DNA of 64,000 bases, from IMG/VR virus record IMGVR_UViG_3300006141_000001, one strand, 5' to 3'. This stretch comes from a virus. Shown piece after piece: positions 1 through 7,565 of this stretch. Numbering within the stretch: the stretch's first letter is position 1; each line of letters opens with the position of its first letter. The notes beneath the pieces are model-generated. The model was not told the origin of the DNA, did not search any database, and saw only the letters and a list, made by a program, of their open reading frames with translations. The position numbers were made by a program, and so were the translations under genes.

Positions 1-55
1 TTTTCTACTTTATATTTTGAAATAAAAAAGCACTTACATTTTATAGTAAATGCTT

Positions 56-265
56 TTAGTATTCTTTTCCATCGGAAAATCTGAAAAAAGAAATATATTC
101 ACATCCTATAATAGTAGCTATCTTTTCCAGTTCTTCCCTTGTAAATTTTCCTGTTTTCATGCGTTGAGAAAATCCAGATTGACTAATCCCAAATTGTTTT
201 GCAAGTTCTGTAATGCTTATATTTGCATGAATACAGGCTGTTTTGATCTGTTCCTGTATTGTAAT
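56..265 (-). CDS. XRE/Cro-C1 HTH transcriptional regulator (ATT start; missed by ORF track)
   Basis: GGAGG SD 8 nt before ATT; 69-aa open frame (M)TIQEQIKTACIHANISITELAKQFGISQSGFSQRMKTGKFTREELEKIATIIGCEY... with HTH pattern. Confidence 0.8.
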   Translation of the reverse strand: MTIQEQIKTACIHANISITELAKQFGISQSGFSQRMKTGKFTREELEKIATIIGCEYISFFRFSDGKEY

Positions 266-346
266 AACTATCGCCTCCTATCTAAAACCACTACACTATT
301 GAAAAAATGTGATTCTGGTATAGAACTCCCTACATTCCACATTTCT

Positions 347-375
347 ATTATATCAGATTCCACAATTTCAAGCAA
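347..375 (-). promoter_or_regulatory. Sigma-A promoter for the XRE gene
   Basis: TTGCTT-17 nt-TATAAT with TG extension on minus strand. Confidence 0.6.
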
Positions 376-514
376 GAAAAATTAAATTTCATCTTCTATC
401 TGTTCCCAATACTCCTTTGGAACATCTTCTCTTAATTTTATTTTTCCCCTTTCTTATTCTTTTTATATTTAGGGCATACAATTTTAATTTAAGCCATATG
501 TCTTATTTTCAGGA

Positions 515-1372
515 TTATTCAGTTTCACATTCCCCCAAGATAAATTTCACGGATTTTTCTGCCCGACTGGCAGCCAACACGATAAATTTTGTGTCATTTT
601 TTAATACTTTCAACCAGTTTTGGATATATGCAACATTATTTTTGAACGTTTTGTTCGTTTCTATGCCGCATATATTCAGCAAATTTGAAGCCCCTATTTC
701 TGCCACCAGCTCTTCTTTTGAATATGTTTCGCTTTCAAACTTTGCATTTTTATCGTTCTCCCCGAATCTTTTAAGTCTGGTTGCATGCCCAGTACTATGT
801 ACGGACTCATGGAATGCAGTTGAATAATACTCTTCGGAATTACCAAACTGCTCAATTAGAGGCAGATGGATCAAATCTAACTTAGGCGAATAATACGCCC
901 TGTTACTCGCCATATTCTCAAAAGAAATGCCTTCTCTGCCTATGTAATCTGCGATTATCTTTTCAGCATGAGTAATAGGCTCAATTTGGTTTAGTTCTGG
1001 TTTTTCCATTGGTTCTACGCCTTCCACCTGGGAAATATGAAATACATTGTAATACCTTAGAATGGGGATGTTTTTTACAATTTTATTCCCCTCCTTATCT
1101 GTATCCTGAAATGGCTGGATTTTCCAAAATACTACCATTTCAGATTTTTCTCCTTTTCGTACATGTCCGCCAAACTGTTGCCATTGCTTAAATGTGGCGT
1201 ATTCACCATCGTTCTGGAGTAGCATCTGATTTAAAAAAGAATAGGGCTTTCTAGTAATACGATTAAAAGCCCCAGAGCAAAGCCCAGTCCATGGTTTTTG
1301 CCATGGGATTATGCCAGCCTCAAGCTGAGAAATAATCTTTTCCGTTACTAATTCGTATACATTTTTTCCCAT
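515..1372 (-). CDS. ardC: ArdC-family ssDNA-binding anti-restriction protein with zincin-like C-terminal domain
   Basis: PWQKPW, YSFLNQMLL, TFKQW..GG.VRKGEKS; HESVHSTGH (HExxH) and EELVAEIGA. Confidence 0.88.
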   Translation of the reverse strand: MGKNVYELVTEKIISQLEAGIIPWQKPWTGLCSGAFNRITRKPYSFLNQMLLQNDGEYATFKQWQQFGGHVRKGEKSEMVVFWKIQPFQDTDKEGNKIVKNIPILRYYNVFHISQVEGVEPMEKPELNQIEPITHAEKIIADYIGREGISFENMASNRAYYSPKLDLIHLPLIEQFGNSEEYYSTAFHESVHSTGHATRLKRFGENDKNAKFESETYSKEELVAEIGASNLLNICGIETNKTFKNNVAYIQNWLKVLKNDTKFIVLAASRAEKSVKFILGECETE

Positions 1373-1408
1373 AATTTTTTCTCCTTTTATGTTAAGAAGC
1401 GCTAGGTG

Positions 1409-1675
1409 TTATCCTGCCGCCTGTTTCATTACTATATCTCCTGCATTCTTCTTAATGTACCACTTGATGTATTTCTTTCGTTCTTTTGTCTTTGGACTTT
1501 TTATAGGTGATATGTTTTTTAAGTATTCTGCCTTAATCCACAGTTTGTTGCCGTCCTTATCCTTACACCCGGCAATCAACTCTGTACCATATCCGGTGTA
1601 TGTTGGTCTTTCCCCTACCCTGGTATGTACAGACGGTATGCAACTACCCAAGCGCACTTTTTCGGTATACGCCAT
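1409..1675 (-). CDS. Hypothetical protein
   Basis: 88-aa basic ORF co-oriented with and directly upstream of ardC. Confidence 0.5.
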   Translation of the reverse strand: MAYTEKVRLGSCIPSVHTRVGERPTYTGYGTELIAGCKDKDGNKLWIKAEYLKNISPIKSPKTKERKKYIKWYIKKNAGDIVMKQAAG

Positions 1676-1742
1676 GAATCATACTCAGAAGCCCGTCCCA
1701 TATGGATCATTTTAGGCTTCTTTTCAGACAACCTTTTATATT

Positions 1743-2875
1743 AGGAAGGGAAATATAAGGCCTTGCTGCCTTTTTTTGTTTCCCTTCCTTGAATTTTTCA
1801 AGGAACTATTTCATAAGAACGCCCGTATTAGCACTATTCGGGGAAAGAATGTCCCCTATCTTATGAAATTTTGTGAAATTAGTTTCGGGAAATCCCCTAC
1901 TTACGGCACCGCCACGGGAAGGCTTTCACATGGTGCCATCTTTGCCAGCAGGGGCTTTAGTCTTACGTGGCGTAGTGCTTTGCCACTGCCTTGCCCCTAT
2001 GCGAATCCGCATTCTGGCATATATCTTGACTGCCCTTGCCTAGTGTTTTTCAAAGCCTGAGTGCTTCATCCATCCGCTTCCTAGTCTGATAGTGGCTTTT
2101 ATGTCCCGGTGGTGCCCGGTGGTTATTATGCCACGTACTAGGAAGTTTCTGCTTCCTCAGTGTTTGCCACTTCTGGAAAGTGCCTCCTATGGTTCAATCC
2201 CAGCTTTTCTTGCCGTGCCCTTACTGGGCTAGGATTTCACTGCCATAGAAGGCTGGCAGCCCGATATACGCCTTATGCGGCGGGTCTCTATCGCTATAGA
2301 CCATTTGCGCCCTTATTTACGGCCAGCAGTGACCGTCACTGTATTTATAGGTTTACTGTCCCTTTTTTTACCAGGTGGGCAAGACGCTTATCCTGGTTGC
2401 TTTGGTCTACGGGTTCCCGGCCTTCCCATTTACGGCTGGAAAGGTACTTATGTACCGTCCTCTTGAGTGCTTTGCTCTATGGATACTCACCAGGCACATG
2501 CACGGATGCACCTGGCTTTCGCCATATCCTCTACACTCTTGAGGATATATACCCCATAACTTTTTGGGGGAGTGGCAGGGTTTGATGCCCTGTCAGTATT
2601 TAAGAGATTCGCTCTCTTTTCGCGCCCACCTTCTGTTGATAAGGGATTGTGGGGAATCCCGGTGCAGGCACAATTTTTTACAGAGGCGTTGCCCGTCTTG
2701 AGCCTCTTTTGGGATGATTACGCTGTCCCCCTTGCGCCAACCAGGTTATTATTTTTTCGTCCCCTATCCTGGTTTGGTATATGGGACTAGATAGATATAT
2801 CCACTTATTACCCTAAAGAACGATGTATGCACTCATTGCCACGTGGGCAGCCCTCACGTCCTTAACTGGTAGGCC
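1743..2875 (-). ncRNA. Putative long structured non-coding RNA / leader of the ardC operon
   Basis: GC-rich relative to flanks, no minus-strand ORF of 60 aa or more, many consecutive short stem-loops with A-rich linkers on minus strand, downstream of a consensus promoter. Confidence 0.5.
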
Positions 2876-2878
2876 TCA

Positions 2879-3004
2879 CTACCTTTTTTTATTCACTACC
2901 AGATTTATCAAAGCTATAATAAACAAGGCAAATGAATACTTATTTCTAATCATTACCATGCAAATTATGGAAATGATTAGTAAGGAGATGTTGATTTTTT
3001 TCAT
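2879..3004 (-). CDS. Small membrane peptide (41 aa)
   Basis: MKKINISLLIISIICMVMIRNKYSFALFIIALINLVVNKKR; two hydrophobic stretches, basic ends. Confidence 0.55.
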   Translation of the reverse strand: MKKINISLLIISIICMVMIRNKYSFALFIIALINLVVNKKR

Positions 3005-3019
3005 ATTGTTTGGTATAAT
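2991..3019 (+). promoter_or_regulatory. Sigma-A promoter antisense to the 44-aa peptide gene
   Basis: TTGATT-17 nt-TATAAT with TG extension (tggtataat). Confidence 0.6.
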
Positions 3020-3063
3020 GGGCTTGTGTTGTCGGGCGGGTTTCCCCGCCCCAACACTTCTAG

Positions 3064-3198
3064 CTACCCAACAAGAGCCTTTAACAGACCCGCAATAGCG
3101 TCTATTAAAACTGAAATTGCTGTTATGACAGCGGCGACTGCCAATAGCATTTCAGAAGGCTTTTGATTGGGCTTTTTCTTTTTAGGTTTCTTGCCCAA
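3064..3198 (-). CDS. Small hydrophobic peptide, type I toxin-like (44 aa)
   Basis: AAGGAGG SD, TTG start, MGKKPKKKKPNQKPSEMLLAVAAVITAISVLIDAIAGLLKALVG; followed by a GC hairpin at about 3033-3051. Confidence 0.7.
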   Translation of the reverse strand: MGKKPKKKKPNQKPSEMLLAVAAVITAISVLIDAIAGLLKALVG

Positions 3199-3288
3199 AA
3201 CCTATCGCCTCCTTTCTTTAATTTTTAAGGTACGGCGGCGTGGGACTGCCTAGTCAAGAGGTTGTTTCTTATCTCTTAACTTGTATAT

Positions 3289-3317
3289 ATTATAGCATAC
3301 AAGTTTTGATATGTCAA
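3289..3317 (-). promoter_or_regulatory. Consensus sigma-A promoter driving the leftward early operon
   Basis: Perfect TTGACA-17 nt-TATAAT on minus strand. Confidence 0.85.
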
Positions 3318-3390
3318 TACTTTTTTTCAAAAAAATTTATTGTTTTTTCTACTTTTTTTTGATATACTTACACTACAGAAGAAAGGGAGG

Positions 3391-3627
3391 ATGATGCAGT
3401 TGGTATACGATGGTGACACTAAAAAGATTATAGACGAAATCAGGCATAAAATGATTGATACAAACACAAGACAGAAAGACATAGTTGACAAATTAGGTTT
3501 GAGCAAGTCTACGGTATCTAACTTTTTAAGTTGTAAAAGTAAAAACCCAACATTAGATACACTTAAAATGTTTTGTGATGCAATGGACTGCGACCTAATT
3601 ATCAAAATACAAGAACGCGAAAATTAA
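3391..3627 (+). CDS. XRE-family HTH regulator, divergent from the early operon
   Basis: GGGAGG SD before ATG 3391; QKDIVDKLGLSKSTVSNFL...NPTLDTLKMFCDAMDC. Confidence 0.85.
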   Translation: MMQLVYDGDTKKIIDEIRHKMIDTNTRQKDIVDKLGLSKSTVSNFLSCKSKNPTLDTLKMFCDAMDCDLIIKIQEREN

Positions 3628-3854
3628 AATTTGCACTTAAATTTAATAGGATTAAACAAGAATGACAATATTTTTTAATACTTTAATCCTTGCGTAACTG
3701 GAAAGAAATGACTGCTCGAAAAGGACTAGAGATATTAGTCTTTATATTGCTTGGTGTATCTAGGTGTGTTGTATGCAGTATTTTAGGTTTAGTTTAGGCT
3801 TGTTTTTATGAAGTTTGTGTGTATTGCTTAATATAGTACTAAAATGTAAAAATC

Positions 3855-3868
3855 GAAACACACGTTCG
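3855..3868. promoter_or_regulatory. Possible LexA (SOS) box
   Basis: AAAC-ACAC-GTTC, one mismatch from the Firmicute GAAC-N4-GTTC consensus. Confidence 0.3.
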
Positions 3869-4081
3869 AAACGGCAATTTCGAACTATATCATATCATTT
3901 TGCTATGAAATACTTTTATAAATTGTGTACATTTTTTTGTTTTTAGCATAAATTTTCAGATATTTTTATGCTCATTTTTGTATTTGTATAGAAGACATAT
4001 GTACGCGCACAAAGGACTTTATGCCCCCTGGTGCTGTGTATGCTCATAGCATATATAGATTTTAAGACCTAAGATTTAAAA

Positions 4082-4115
4082 AACATACAGGAATACTATA
4101 CTATTCCTGTATGTT
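4082..4115. repeat. 14-bp perfect inverted repeat with 6-bp spacer
   Basis: AACATACAGGAATA-CTATAC-TATTCCTGTATGTT. Confidence 0.85.
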
Positions 4116-4251
4116 CTGTACCGGGCGGGGGTTGGTTTACATAATTTTTTAAACCTATAATTTATTAGGTCGCCCTATCATATCTGCTCAGACGCAACTT
4201 ACAAAAAATTCGCTTCTCTTTTAAAATTATCTGACAATTTAAAAGCAACAC

Positions 4252-4841
4252 CCATAAACATCTCGAAAAAAGGCTCGGAAAATGCTCGGGACACAAAAAT
4301 AAATCTCTTAAAAATAAGTGAACACTAAATTGTCTGACAATTATAAAGAGACCAATTATCTGCCCAACAACCATAAAGCACCAACTAAATGACCAATAAA
4401 TCAAATAAAAATCCATCAATTTCCCGAACCCAATACCCGAACCAAACTCCTACAGAAAATTTCCCATAAAAATACCGATAAATTAGCCAAGAAAATCCAA
4501 TCAACATATCCCATAAAAATAGGCATTTTCAGAAAGAAAAAATCAATCCAAAAATACCTCAATTTTATCTAATTTCCCGAACTCCCTCTCATTGCGTTAA
4601 CTCACCAGACACATCAATATCATAATTACATAGCCAAAAAATGCATATGACATTATAGAGCCTCCATAAAATAAAGGAAAAACATTATACGATATCCTAT
4701 GAAAATCAAGAAGAAACTAAAAAAGAAAATAACAAGAAATTTAAGACCCCCACATAGACCATCATTTAAAGTTCCTAAAATTATATAGCCAGATATCAGA
4801 AAATCAAAAGCATGTTATGCATTTCCGTAAAAATTCCATAA
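4252..4841 (+). repeat. Dispersed direct repeats CCATAAA (x6) and CCCGAAC (x3)
   Basis: CCATAAA at 4252, 4371, 4464, 4511, 4664, 4835; CCCGAAC at 4423, 4436, 4576; all on the same strand. Confidence 0.6.
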
Positions 4842-5573
4842 ACGCAGCACATGCCATACCATCAAGACAGCCCGTATTATCATTATTATTGCCTAACTAC
4901 TCTCCCACTATTCCAAAAATTCTCTCCTGGTAATCGTCTATCAGAAATTCCGTATAATTTCGGCGTGAAATCTGCATCCTATACAATCCACACCTCCAGA
5001 AATCCCTTAATAAATATGAGATAAAATTTTTATATGTTTAAATTACAGAAAAACACACCTAAAATCAATTTTAACTCATTATGGCACAACTTTACCCTTA
5101 CGATATTAAAATTGAAATTTGCCGTCTAAAGTGAAATTCAATCAACAGATCTTACCAAGCAAATATTCTGTCATATAAGTCATTTATAGAGATATTCATA
5201 TCATACTCAGTTTACAGGCTCAAACATATTATAGCAAACCATATAACATAAAACCCATAAGAGGGGTGTATTTAACATTTTTCACAATACACATTGCACA
5301 GAAGAGTAGTATTGAAAATATAGATGAAGATAATTGCCAGATATAATTTGAAATTTGATTGATTTAATATTTTCTTTTCATCCAGAAATAAAAACCACAA
5401 TAAATATTTATTTACATATCTATTGATTGTCAGATATCATCTTTTGCTTAGAAAAATATAATATCAATATTTGTAATAGATATCATATCATTTAATTATA
5501 ACTCTATTTCTGTAATTTTAAATCACTACTGCTATCCATATTTTTCTATTTTATATAGTTATAGAAAATGAAA

Positions 5574-6221
5574 GAACTGAACCACTACCGGCTAAAGCCG
5601 GTAGGTTCGGTGTGCTGCTGAAGCAGCCTAAAGCTGTTTCCCCCGTAAAGTTTTCATTTACCCCGATACGTTTATCCTATCTCAAAGTTATCGAATTTTG
5701 TTTTCTCCTGCAAATCCTGATTTTTGATATACTCCTTGATAATTTCATCCGTCACATTCCCGCTGCTTGCCACAAAGTATCCCCTTGCCCATAAATGCTG
5801 TCCCCAAAACTGTTTATTTAATTCCTTATATTCCATCTGCAGTTTCCGGGATGTATTTCCTTTTATATATTGCACCAGCTTACTTGCTGAAAGATGTGGC
5901 GGAACAGAAACCAACAGATGTATATGGTCACTTCCCACATGTCCTGCCAGTATCTCCACTTCATTACTCTGGCATACCATGCGGATCAGCTCCCTTGTCC
6001 TTATAGCTATCTTCCCAACTATTACGGGTTTGCGGTATTTCGTGATCCATACCAGATGGTATTTAATATCATACGTGCAATGTGACGATTTCCTGTAATT
6101 TTCCATATCTTCACCTCAGGTTTAGTATTCCTATTTTTGCTTTATCTAAACCTGAAGCTATGGGGTTTACCTAAAGGTTTCGCCTAAAGGCGAGGGTTTT
6201 AACCCCATTATACAGACAATA
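5574..6221 (-). mobile_element. IS200-like insertion sequence (tnpA only); ends approximate
   Basis: Y1 transposase flanked by subterminal hairpins CTACCGGCT-AA-AGCCGGTAG (5585-5604) and GGGGTT...TCGCCTAAAGGCGA...AACCCC (6162-6206). Confidence 0.85.
5672..6106 (-). CDS. tnpA: IS200/IS605-family Y1 transposase
   Basis: YHLVWITKYRK, DHIHLL (HUH), LWARGYF, EYIKNQ (catalytic Tyr). Confidence 0.95.
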   Translation of the reverse strand: MENYRKSSHCTYDIKYHLVWITKYRKPVIVGKIAIRTRELIRMVCQSNEVEILAGHVGSDHIHLLVSVPPHLSASKLVQYIKGNTSRKLQMEYKELNKQFWGQHLWARGYFVASSGNVTDEIIKEYIKNQDLQEKTKFDNFEIG

Positions 6222-6760
6222 AATTATTCTTTCAGATTCTATATTTTTTTGCAATACGGAAATTTCTGTAAAGCCGTACAAAACATATCTCTGTAAATCG
6301 GAAGACTACATAATGTAGACTTGCAAAAAAATCACTACATGGTGTAGAAGTATTGAAAGATGACCGTTTTCCTGCAATACATAAATAAAAAATGTGAATT
6401 GATATGGTAGAGATTTTTATATTGCAGAATATATGCCTAATAAAAATACTATCCAAAGTGATTGCCACAAGTTCTGAGGAGGAAAAATCAAAAACATGAA
6501 AAATCTACAGATACAAATATGTGATATAAGAAATATGAAGAAGATGGTTTTGATAAGAAAAATTTGGATGTGTTTCAATAGATATAATTTTTACAAATGT
6601 TCCAGGAGAAAAATAAGAACATATTATATTCTGTCATTAAAGATATCCTAAAAATATGAAAACCTTATAGCAAACAGATATTTCATAAAAAATCATATGG
6701 CTTATTATAAAAATTATGTATTTATCCTAAAAAGAAAAAATTTGTATTGTGGCCGGGGGT

Positions 6761-6807
6761 TTGGGGGCGGGCAAAGTCGTATTCGCAAGAATACGACTAG
6801 CCCCCAA
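6761..6807. other. GC-rich stem-loop with GCAA loop
   Basis: TTGGGGGC..AGTCGTATTC-GCAA-GAATACGACT..GCCCCCAA. Confidence 0.7.
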
Positions 6808-7099
6808 TATATAGGAGTAACAGATCACATCGCTATATAAAATACATAAATATATCTGATTACTAGTATAGAAAGATTTAGAAAAATACAGAAGAAAAAT
6901 ATTATACAAAGATATATAAAGGGATAGGCTCGTCTTGCCTTCTGCAAGCCAAGCCTATGTTCGCAATCTGGAGATTGCTCACCTTTGTCAAAAAAATGGA
7001 AATAAAATAACTGCACCTTGAAAAATAGTAATTATTTGAATTACTTATATAGATAGATGTACAAATCATATATAAATCACAAAAATATATGGGGAAAAT

Positions 7100-7311
7100 A
7101 AAAAATCATTCAAACCCTCCCTATATATATTAATACTTAAGGGAGGGTTCGAATGATTTTTTCAGAAAATTTATTATATTATCGTTTAATTATAGCATTT
7201 ATCAATAAATTATCAGAATATTTATGTTTATTTATTGAATTATGCAAAACTTCCTTCAAACCCTCCCTATATATATTAATACTTAAGGGAGGGTACGAAG
7301 GAAGTTTTTGC
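7100..7311. repeat. Two copies of a palindromic element sharing an identical 40-bp core (candidate origin)
   Basis: TTCAAACCCTCCCTATATATATTAATACTTAAGGGAGGGT at 7109-7148 and 7255-7294, each with different self-complementary outer arms. Confidence 0.9.
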
Positions 7312-7565
7312 AACCCATATTTTCCCCTTATGACATATTACGAATTATGAATGTATATCAACATGCATTGTTTTGTAATCTGTTTTTTTATATTTTTAAT
7401 CCAAGATTTACTCTCGCATTGACAAACACAAATTACGGATAAGATGAATTATTAAATGGCAACCAACGACATCTTATTTTTATCACTTCAAAAGTAGTAA
7501 GTATTAATGTGGCAATCAAAACCATCACAATTATAACACAAAATCAAAAAAGGAGAAACAAAAAA

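Follow-up and report, generated by a model that had tools for sequence, protein, structure and literature searches.

The closest described counterpart of the sequence discussed here is EGeRS1, the establishment gene regulatory sequence type 1 of the pLS20-family and pBS72 conjugative plasmids of Bacillus (Val-Calvo et al. 2021, Microorganisms 9:2465, PMC8708921). Our own subject is a GC-rich, non-coding segment of about 1.1 kb that lies upstream of ardC, a gene for an anti-restriction protein, in a 64,000-nucleotide stretch of phage DNA from the IMG/VR record IMGVR_UViG_3300006141_000001; this whole stretch is called the window below, and positions refer to it unless another sequence is named. 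EGeRS1 occupies 420-750 bp directly before five establishment operons, one of which starts with ardC (PMC8708921). Its GC content is 51.4%, against 37.7% for the plasmid, and it has many inverted repeats, a very stable predicted fold as RNA or as single-stranded DNA (ssDNA), and no SigA promoter (PMC8708921). The copies are 62-95% similar to one another, and the element abolishes read-through from an upstream promoter in its native orientation only; the authors left the mechanism unknown and argued against an ssDNA promoter (PMC8708921). Large ornate RNAs, the other kind of described system that has to be considered, occur in phages (PMC12286853).

In our opinion, the phage segment is best read as a cis-acting structured RNA leader or insulator of an early anti-restriction operon, analogous and not homologous to EGeRS1. 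Of the readings that we weighed this is the best supported, and we hold it tentatively, as an analogy that falls somewhat short of being probable. An earlier note on this DNA, made by a model from the letters only (the original prediction), had proposed either a new large non-coding RNA (ncRNA) or a leader-like or ssDNA-folded element timing ardC expression; of these, we give the leader some preference over the large ncRNA. The segment is an orphan, seen solely in assemblies of one phage, and should be taken as a lead rather than a result.

Composition and fold of the segment

The body of the segment (1781-2870, its sense taken as that of the minus strand, as for ardC) is delimited by its GC profile, its stop codons and its folding. 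GC is 0.48-0.51 over 1800-2850 and 0.30-0.40 in the flanks, a contrast that the original prediction had described correctly. In the IMG/VR source record (169,653 bp, GC 0.353, about 70% complete by estimate) other stretches with GC of at least 0.45 were examined for reading frames, though not all of them, and every one examined lies within a long open reading frame (ORF); among the stretches checked, no GC-rich island other than the segment lies outside a long frame. At 45.3-45.8 kb a further GC-rich gap seemed to be present, but it falls inside a long ORF and was discarded.

The longest minus-strand ORF with a start codon in this region has 34 amino acids (aa), so that the claimed absence of any minus-strand ORF of 60 aa or more is borne out, and the minus strand of the segment carries no small ORFs led by a Shine-Dalgarno sequence. 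Each of the six frames contains 8-26 stops of mixed types, with no single type dominating; therefore no recoding rescues a frame. The longest ORF overall, of 141 aa and on the plus strand, is without relatives both in a set of 1.84 billion representative proteins and in a word-indexed set of 5.8 billion, while ten stop-to-stop frames gave no Pfam match at E<=1 and no PHROG match either.

Folding was compared with dinucleotide shuffles and, additionally, with 276-nt pieces of coding sequence (CDS). The minimum free energy (MFE) of the 1141-nt minus strand is -399.3, against -334.7 +/- 9.5 for the shuffles (z -6.8), and the plus strand reaches z -5.7; the CDS pieces gave z values between -2.2 and +1.9. 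The comparison of folding energy per strand, which the original prediction had suggested as a check, hence comes out in favour of an excess, but this excess is not uniform. It is concentrated in three blocks (2005-2282, 2465-2620 and 1740-1870), and the pieces 2620-2834, 2283-2435 and 1909-2004, when folded alone, do no better than shuffles. The earlier description of the segment as hairpin-packed is correct for about half of its length.

The most prominent block is a central multi-branched domain of 278 nt (2005-2282, minus strand), in which a closing stem of 6+10+7 bp surrounds four arms. Its MFE is -109.9 kcal/mol on the minus strand (z -7.46) and -93.6 on the plus strand (z -3.25), so the ardC strand of the domain is favoured by 16 kcal/mol, and most of its helices have pairing probabilities of 0.97-1.0. 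One of the two longer-range pairings proposed earlier, CTTCCTAGT/ACTAGGAAG (2145-2137 with 2085-2077), has a pairing probability of 0.98; the other (about 2130 with about 1965) is not favoured, as 2134-2130 is already paired to 2096-2092 with a probability of 1.0. The second block is a row of local minus-strand hairpins (2465-2620; z -4.2 minus, -5.9 plus) that includes AAGAGA/TCTCTT, CAGGG/CCCTG, CCCCA/TGGGG, ATATCCTC/GAGGATAT and an 11-bp GCCAGGTGCAT stem. The third is a cluster of hairpins at the 3' end of the minus strand (1740-1870; z -4.8 minus, -4.3 plus), with an 11-bp stem at 1869-1808, a 9-bp stem at 1805-1785 and a further 11-bp stem at 1789-1743; read on the plus strand, this block resembles terminators.

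Nearly all of the short stems that had been picked out from the letters exist as perfect Watson-Crick helices: AACCAGG/CCTGGTT at 2739-2774, AGAGGC/GCCTCT at 2682-2707, GGGATT/AATCCC at 2643-2660, AAGAGA/TCTCTT at 2602-2618, ATATCCTC/GAGGATAT at 2524-2548, CCAGG/CCTGG at 2490-2515, GGTAC/GTACC at 2443-2456 and AGGAAG/CTTCCT at 2140-2157. The ACGGTCA/TGGCCGT stem is also present, with one mismatch. The minus strand of the segment is composed of 32% A, 26% G, 23% C and 19% U, and its confidently unpaired bases are 65% A and 12% C. Unpaired bases that are rich in A are typical of structured RNAs; on the plus strand, the linkers would instead be U-rich.

Certain further features were looked for in the segment. 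GNRA or UNCG tetraloops are not enriched. Internal repeat modules were rejected, given that the k-mer excess is modest and does not exceed that of some CDS controls, and so was a CsrA-type GGA sponge, since GGA, counted by eye, is as frequent as composition predicts.

Position, strand and comparison with EGeRS1

The record encodes a YonO-like single-subunit RNA polymerase and represents an SPbeta-like gut phage, whose closest prophage relatives are found in metagenome-assembled genomes (MAGs) of uncultured Eubacterium and Lachnospiraceae. Terminase, tail fibre and tape measure genes mark it as a tailed phage, the genome of which is presumably delivered as double-stranded DNA (dsDNA). On the minus strand of the early region the order is as follows: a promoter, a 44-aa ORF, a GC hairpin, a 41-aa hydrophobic ORF, the GC-rich segment, an 88-aa ORF, ardC and a helix-turn-helix gene. 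Both flanking landmarks of the original prediction are real. The promoter (3317-3289, minus strand) is of the consensus sigma-70/SigA type, TTGACA-17-TGnTATAAT, and is the sole strong promoter within reach of the segment when both strands are considered. The ardC gene (515-1372, minus strand) has a strong ribosome-binding site (RBS), and its product consists of an ArdC N-terminal domain (Pfam PF08401, ArdcN, 1.3e-27) and a zincin-like metallopeptidase domain (PF18818, MPTase-PolyVal, 2.5e-33), with a match to PHROG 7245 at 5e-74.

What speaks for a leader is that the segment lies between the sole strong nearby promoter and ardC, on the same strand. A consensus scan of both strands found no strong promoter inside or beside the segment, and no intrinsic terminator was found in it on the sense strand; the segment would therefore be co-transcribed. 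We propose that it is carried within a leftward early transcript starting from the promoter at 3317-3289 and that its RNA would fold into a large structure of GC stems and A linkers. This folded RNA may then act in cis, as a leader or an insulator for the 88-aa gene and ardC, and read-through could be blocked or gated in one orientation only, as is the case for EGeRS1. Expression of ardC from a strong early promoter would thereby be limited or timed, and the segment would also separate the ardC unit from an upstream toxin-like peptide unit. Transcription of the segment, RNA and not DNA as its active form, and the gating function are what we infer.

We take the minus strand to be the sense strand with moderate confidence. 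The difference between the two strands in the central domain (z -7.5 minus, -3.3 plus) argues for an RNA of the ardC strand and not for a symmetric feature of the DNA.

How does the segment compare with EGeRS1? Our comparison set comprised seven EGeRS1 sequences, namely five copies from a pLS20-like plasmid and the copies from pBS72 and from a B. velezensis plasmid. When re-measured on the pLS20-like plasmid, EGeRS1-B had a GC content of 0.52-0.54 and fold z values of -8.0 (sense) and -9.6 (antisense). Both sequences combine a non-coding GC excess in a low-GC replicon (50% against 35% for the segment, 51-54% against about 36% for EGeRS1) with an abundance of inverted repeats and a very stable fold (z -6.8 and -8.0, respectively). 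Both lie upstream of an ardC operon on the same strand, neither has a recognisable SigA promoter inside, and in both cases spurious ORFs of the hypothetical protein kind can be called on the opposite strand. They also share the motif CCGUAAR on the sense strand only. The segment has three sense copies (the first, GCCGUAAAUGGG, at 2429-2435 on the minus strand, the others starting at 2322 and 1906) and no antisense copy, against a genome frequency of 0.088 per kb per strand, and six of the seven EGeRS1 sequences have one or two copies each; this is a weak likeness and a post-hoc observation. What the original prediction said of structured leaders before establishment genes such as ardC is true of EGeRS1 in the pLS20 plasmids (PMC8708921).

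On the pLS20-like plasmid NZ_CP125813.1, RefSeq lists hypothetical proteins opposite EGeRS1-B and its upstream spacer (1916-2065 and 2358-2648 of the extracted locus). These calls are probably spurious, like the 141-aa ORF of the phage segment.

A considerable number of observations weigh against the leader, and it is fair to give them together. There is no detectable homology between the two elements: blastn of the segment against plasmids returned no match, an nhmmer profile of the seven EGeRS1 sequences found no match in it, and a covariance model (R2) of the conserved 3' part of EGeRS1, about 300 nt, scored at most 5.4 bits in the segment with filters off, which is noise level. EGeRS1, with 4-5 copies per plasmid, has the character of a regulon signal, whereas the segment exists in one copy; at about 1.1 kb the segment is also about twice as long. 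EGeRS1 ends right at the RBS, whereas the segment is separated from the ardC RBS by the 88-aa ORF; the distance from its end is about 65-100 nt to that ORF, which has a weak RBS, and about 370 nt to the ardC RBS. The four closest phages have neither the segment nor ardC, and there is no GC-rich island before ardC in two Lachnospiraceae contexts of the nearest ArdC relatives or in the 18 IMG/VR loci examined; ardC is not generally accompanied by a GC-rich leader. As there are no relatives, no predicted helix has covariation support for selection. Finally, the strand preference is mixed, since block 2465-2620 folds better on the plus strand; the counts of G.U versus A.C mismatches do not favour the minus strand, and the terminator-like hairpins at both ends of the segment face the plus direction.

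Further differences concern the sequences themselves and their hosts. EGeRS1-B has a sense-strand GC hairpin followed by a U-run, and the segment has no such hairpin; the segment is bounded by a direct repeat, unlike EGeRS1. The segment belongs to a phage with prophage relatives in Eubacterium and Lachnospiraceae, whereas EGeRS1 matched only plasmids: its matches amount to 68 records, all from Bacillus plasmids plus one from Paenalkalicoccus, and there are none in the phage collection. Hence, the segment is not a member of EGeRS1, yet it shares the distinctive physical and positional features of that element.

A broader proposal would be that we are dealing with an undescribed structured RNA of about 1.1 kb tied to ArdC anti-restriction, as one instance of a convergent class of GC-rich folded modules found with ardC on mobile elements that are unrelated to each other (EGeRS1 being an example), and that it either gates ardC on entry or works together with the ssDNA-binding ArdC. 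We regard this as doubtful. If the segment were indeed a non-homologous counterpart of EGeRS1 before ardC in a gut phage of Clostridia, the association of a folded non-coding module with an anti-restriction gene would be a general, convergent way of timing counter-defence on entry and not the quirk of one family, and there would be a second independent system in which an EGeRS1-type mechanism could be worked out.

Relatives, boundaries and rival explanations

The search for relatives returned none. Blastn of the segment gave no match in 50,697 phage and 72,556 plasmid records, and no relative was found in 18 IMG/VR ardC loci, in three MAGs with related prophages, or in the four closest phages, which are 76-79% identical in the YonO-like RNA polymerase and were searched whole. 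BLAST against 401 host-family genomes and 399 genomes from the class (Clostridia) produced only 31-nt chance matches. Scans with back-translated words, for which three spurious plus-strand ORFs served as bait, found nothing in IMG/VR, JGI metagenomes or 185,579 species genomes, and a single-sequence covariance model of the central domain found nothing in related phages or 151 family genomes. There is no second copy of the segment in the 169.6-kb record. In Rfam 15 the window has no match at gathering score except two tRNAs; the isolated segment at E<=10 yields noise only, the best hits being unrelated small families at 15-25 bits, below gathering. As far as covariance models see, this excludes GOLLD, ROOL, HEARO, OLE, group I/II introns, ribozymes and riboswitches, and the comparison with GOLLD and ROOL made in the original prediction thus finds no match. 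These empty searches leave no sequences from which covariation could be read, and they do not show that conservation of the segment is absent.

The neighbouring genes point to a rare phage. No ArdC relative is closer than 67% identity, and in a 15-billion-protein collection ArdC and the 88-aa protein are found on only two contigs; the phage is therefore rare. Homologues of the 88-aa protein sit in other contexts, without the segment.

A 20-nt imperfect direct repeat, AGGCCTYRCTRCCTTTTTTT, brackets the segment at 1758-1777 and 2871-2890, exactly at both GC steps; these are the sole two copies in the 169.6-kb genome, with 0.03 expected by chance in the 64-kb window. The left copy (AGGCCTTGCTGCCTTTTTTT, plus strand) contains a hairpin, AAGGC/GCCTT, nested in the 11-bp stem 1743-1789, and the right copy (AGGCCTCACTACCTTTTTTT, plus strand) contributes to a weak terminator-like hairpin, GGTAG/CTACC plus a T run, at 2868-2883. 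The two copies are three transitions apart, and each reads on the plus strand as a weak terminator-like hairpin. Searching IMG/VR with the repeat pattern gave 18 single chance matches and no pairs.

The 88-aa ORF (P0001; 1409-1675, minus strand) lies just downstream of the segment. Its relatives have 92-154 aa, and homology to the longer ones (P0003-P0005) starts only at 1618; the missing N-terminal part of the family is nowhere in the genome, and the gene has probably been truncated or replaced at its 5' end. Positions 1-7500 of the window show no synteny with the four closest phages, and an IS200 copy lies 2.7 kb from the segment. Given the repeats at the GC steps, the loss of homology in the 88-aa gene, the lack of synteny and the nearby IS200, the segment is a discrete module gained by insertion or recombination in a variable accessory region. 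The left junction is not an assembly artefact, because an independent ENA contig is 100% identical over 960-2080 and spans this junction. An origin as an acquired module and a function as a leader are compatible with each other.

What else could the segment be? One alternative is a free-standing large ornate ncRNA on the scale of GOLLD, ROOL or OLE, which would be freed from the early transcript, perhaps through processing at the repeat hairpins, and would act in trans, its proximity to ardC being incidental or reflecting a shared anti-defence role. Size, a GC-rich intergenic nature, A-rich single strands and very negative z values correspond to criteria used in searches for ncRNAs in GC-rich intergenic regions of AT-rich genomes (PMC6429828, PMC8632094); such RNAs are known from phages, as mentioned in the beginning, and near-identical, hairpin-forming end repeats could mark the RNA ends. 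The likeness to GOLLD (RF01998), ROOL (RF03087), OLE and HEARO extends to the kilobase scale, the many hairpins, the A-rich linkers, the GC contrast in an AT-rich genome and the location in a phage. On the contrary, the segment matches no covariance model of Rfam even at E<=10, does not lie beside tRNA genes, has no promoter or sense-strand terminator of its own and belongs to no family, and about half of its length, cut alone, folds like shuffles. Conservation is the norm for large functional RNAs, yet pattern scans of IMG/VR, JGI metagenomes and 185,579 species genomes, BLAST against 800 Clostridia genomes and searches of the phage and plasmid collections all came up without anything similar. 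We consider this explanation somewhat unlikely; if it were correct, the RNA would be among the largest phage ncRNAs. A functionless passenger, that is, foreign DNA in a variable early region, brought by a non-autonomous mobile element or by a Campbell-type integration of a small circle, the repeats being the junctions and the folding a legacy of the source, is in our judgement unlikely as well. It would fit the genome-unique repeat exactly at the two GC steps, the 88-aa gene that loses homology at 1618, the non-syntenic surroundings (1-7500), the IS200 element, which indicates that the region tolerates insertions, and the absence of the segment from the four closest phages. But there is no transposase, integrase, terminal inverted repeat or second genome copy, no searched genome or collection holds a copy, which is unusual for a mobile element, and the repeat pattern in IMG/VR gave single chance matches only. 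Moreover, a strand-biased domain with z -7.5 is hard to explain as a relic, and a passenger accounts for the origin of the segment but not for its structure. Similar hairpin-capable end sequences in direct orientation, with an IS200 tnpA 2.7 kb away, recall the ends of IS200/IS605 and PATE elements. Non-autonomous elements derived from IS200/IS605 usually occur in multiple copies and have subterminal hairpins that match at the two ends and are recognised by a Y1 transposase; in the segment, the end hairpins pair in different registers and show no similarity to the neighbouring IS200 ends, and the segment is single-copy and far longer than known PATEs.

The remaining explanations are weaker still. 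An element acting as DNA, such as an ssDNA promoter of the Frpo/ssi type, a replication origin, a packaging site or another cruciform-forming site, is very unlikely in our opinion, even though the hairpins are mostly perfect Watson-Crick, both strands fold well (z -6.8 and -5.7), and ardC on conjugative plasmids can follow ssDNA promoters (literature cited in PMC8708921). The Frpo/ssi promoters of plasmid leading regions are likewise hairpin-forming non-coding DNA before anti-restriction genes expressed on entry. However, they are much shorter, require the entry of conjugative ssDNA and rebuild -35/-10 boxes; no strong -35/-10 hexamer pair can be assembled in the segment on either strand, and the phage presumably delivers dsDNA, which the ssDNA-promoter reading of the original prediction does not fit. 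Neither iterons nor an AT-rich unwinding region were found, the central domain is clearly asymmetric between strands, and the ssDNA-promoter reading was rejected for EGeRS1 by its own authors (PMC8708921). Least probable of all is a decayed or recoded protein-coding gene. Two plus-strand frames have 8 and 10 stops, where about 16 are expected by a hand estimate from base composition, and there is a weak period-3 signal, though above zero (S/N 2.6). Against this stand the lack of a dominant stop type in any frame, the 141-aa ORF without relatives and the ten frames without Pfam or PHROG matches, and what the original prediction had listed as a possible refutation, a decayed gene, is not what we see: the segment has no ORF, and none of its frames has a relative in Pfam or among proteins. 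The same holds for its other named alternative, a known intron or IS fragment. A group I/II intron, which would be recognised by catalytic core motifs (P7 or domain V) and by the host gene that it interrupts, was considered and rejected, since there is no Rfam intron match and no upstream exon of the 88-aa gene family in the genome.

Neighbouring genes and other ardC loci

The first unit of the leftward transcript is the 44-aa ORF (3064-3198, minus strand), which encodes a peptide that is Lys-rich plus hydrophobic, and it is followed by the strong GC hairpin at 3027-3060. The layout of 2879-3317 resembles a type I toxin-antitoxin system, in that the leftward consensus promoter drives a Lys-rich, transmembrane 44-aa peptide and then the hairpin. 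A convergent plus-strand promoter, TTGATT-17-TGnTATAAT (2991-3019), would run antisense over both the peptide ORF and the hairpin. The 41-aa ORF (3004-2879) lacks a Shine-Dalgarno sequence and ends with a stop codon within the right direct repeat.

On the other side of the promoter, the same accessory region contains another long stretch, 3640-5550, that is non-coding or odd. Its only ORF of at least 60 aa in about 1.9 kb is one 84-aa frame, the strand bias is strong (GC skew down to -0.6 and AT skew of +0.3 over 4200-5100), and the period-3 S/N of 0.34 is very low. It is followed by the IS200-type insertion (5550-6230), with a gene for a 144-aa Y1 transposase at 5672-6106 on the minus strand (Pfam Y1_Tnp, 9e-44) and end hairpins at 5572-5653 and about 6120-6215. 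Weak Rfam matches to psRNA14 and ctRNA_pGA1 at 5566-5653 are probably these end hairpins.

Other loci with related genes deserve a brief mention. A Lachnospiraceae element with an ArdC of its own (P0026; loci L104-L106) has about 1.46 kb devoid of genes right behind ardC and a 75-aa gene (4653-6110 of that locus), and the first 500 nt or so of this gap have 43-48% GC in a locus of 37%. In two ENA contigs (L032/L033, 451-1184) a 114-aa relative of the 88-aa protein is encoded directly before a gene with a DarA_C domain, which suggests anti-restriction islands as the home of the 88-aa protein family. Among the IMG/VR ardC loci, the closest one (IMGVR_UViG_2563367166_000005; 64% identity) carries two known RNAs, at 3649-3730 and 5879-5947 of that locus: a skipping-rope RNA, scoring 76.7 bits, which precedes ardC by about 1.3 kb, and a Pistol ribozyme, scoring 66.1 bits, which follows the gene closely; so phage ardC neighbourhoods collect structured RNAs.

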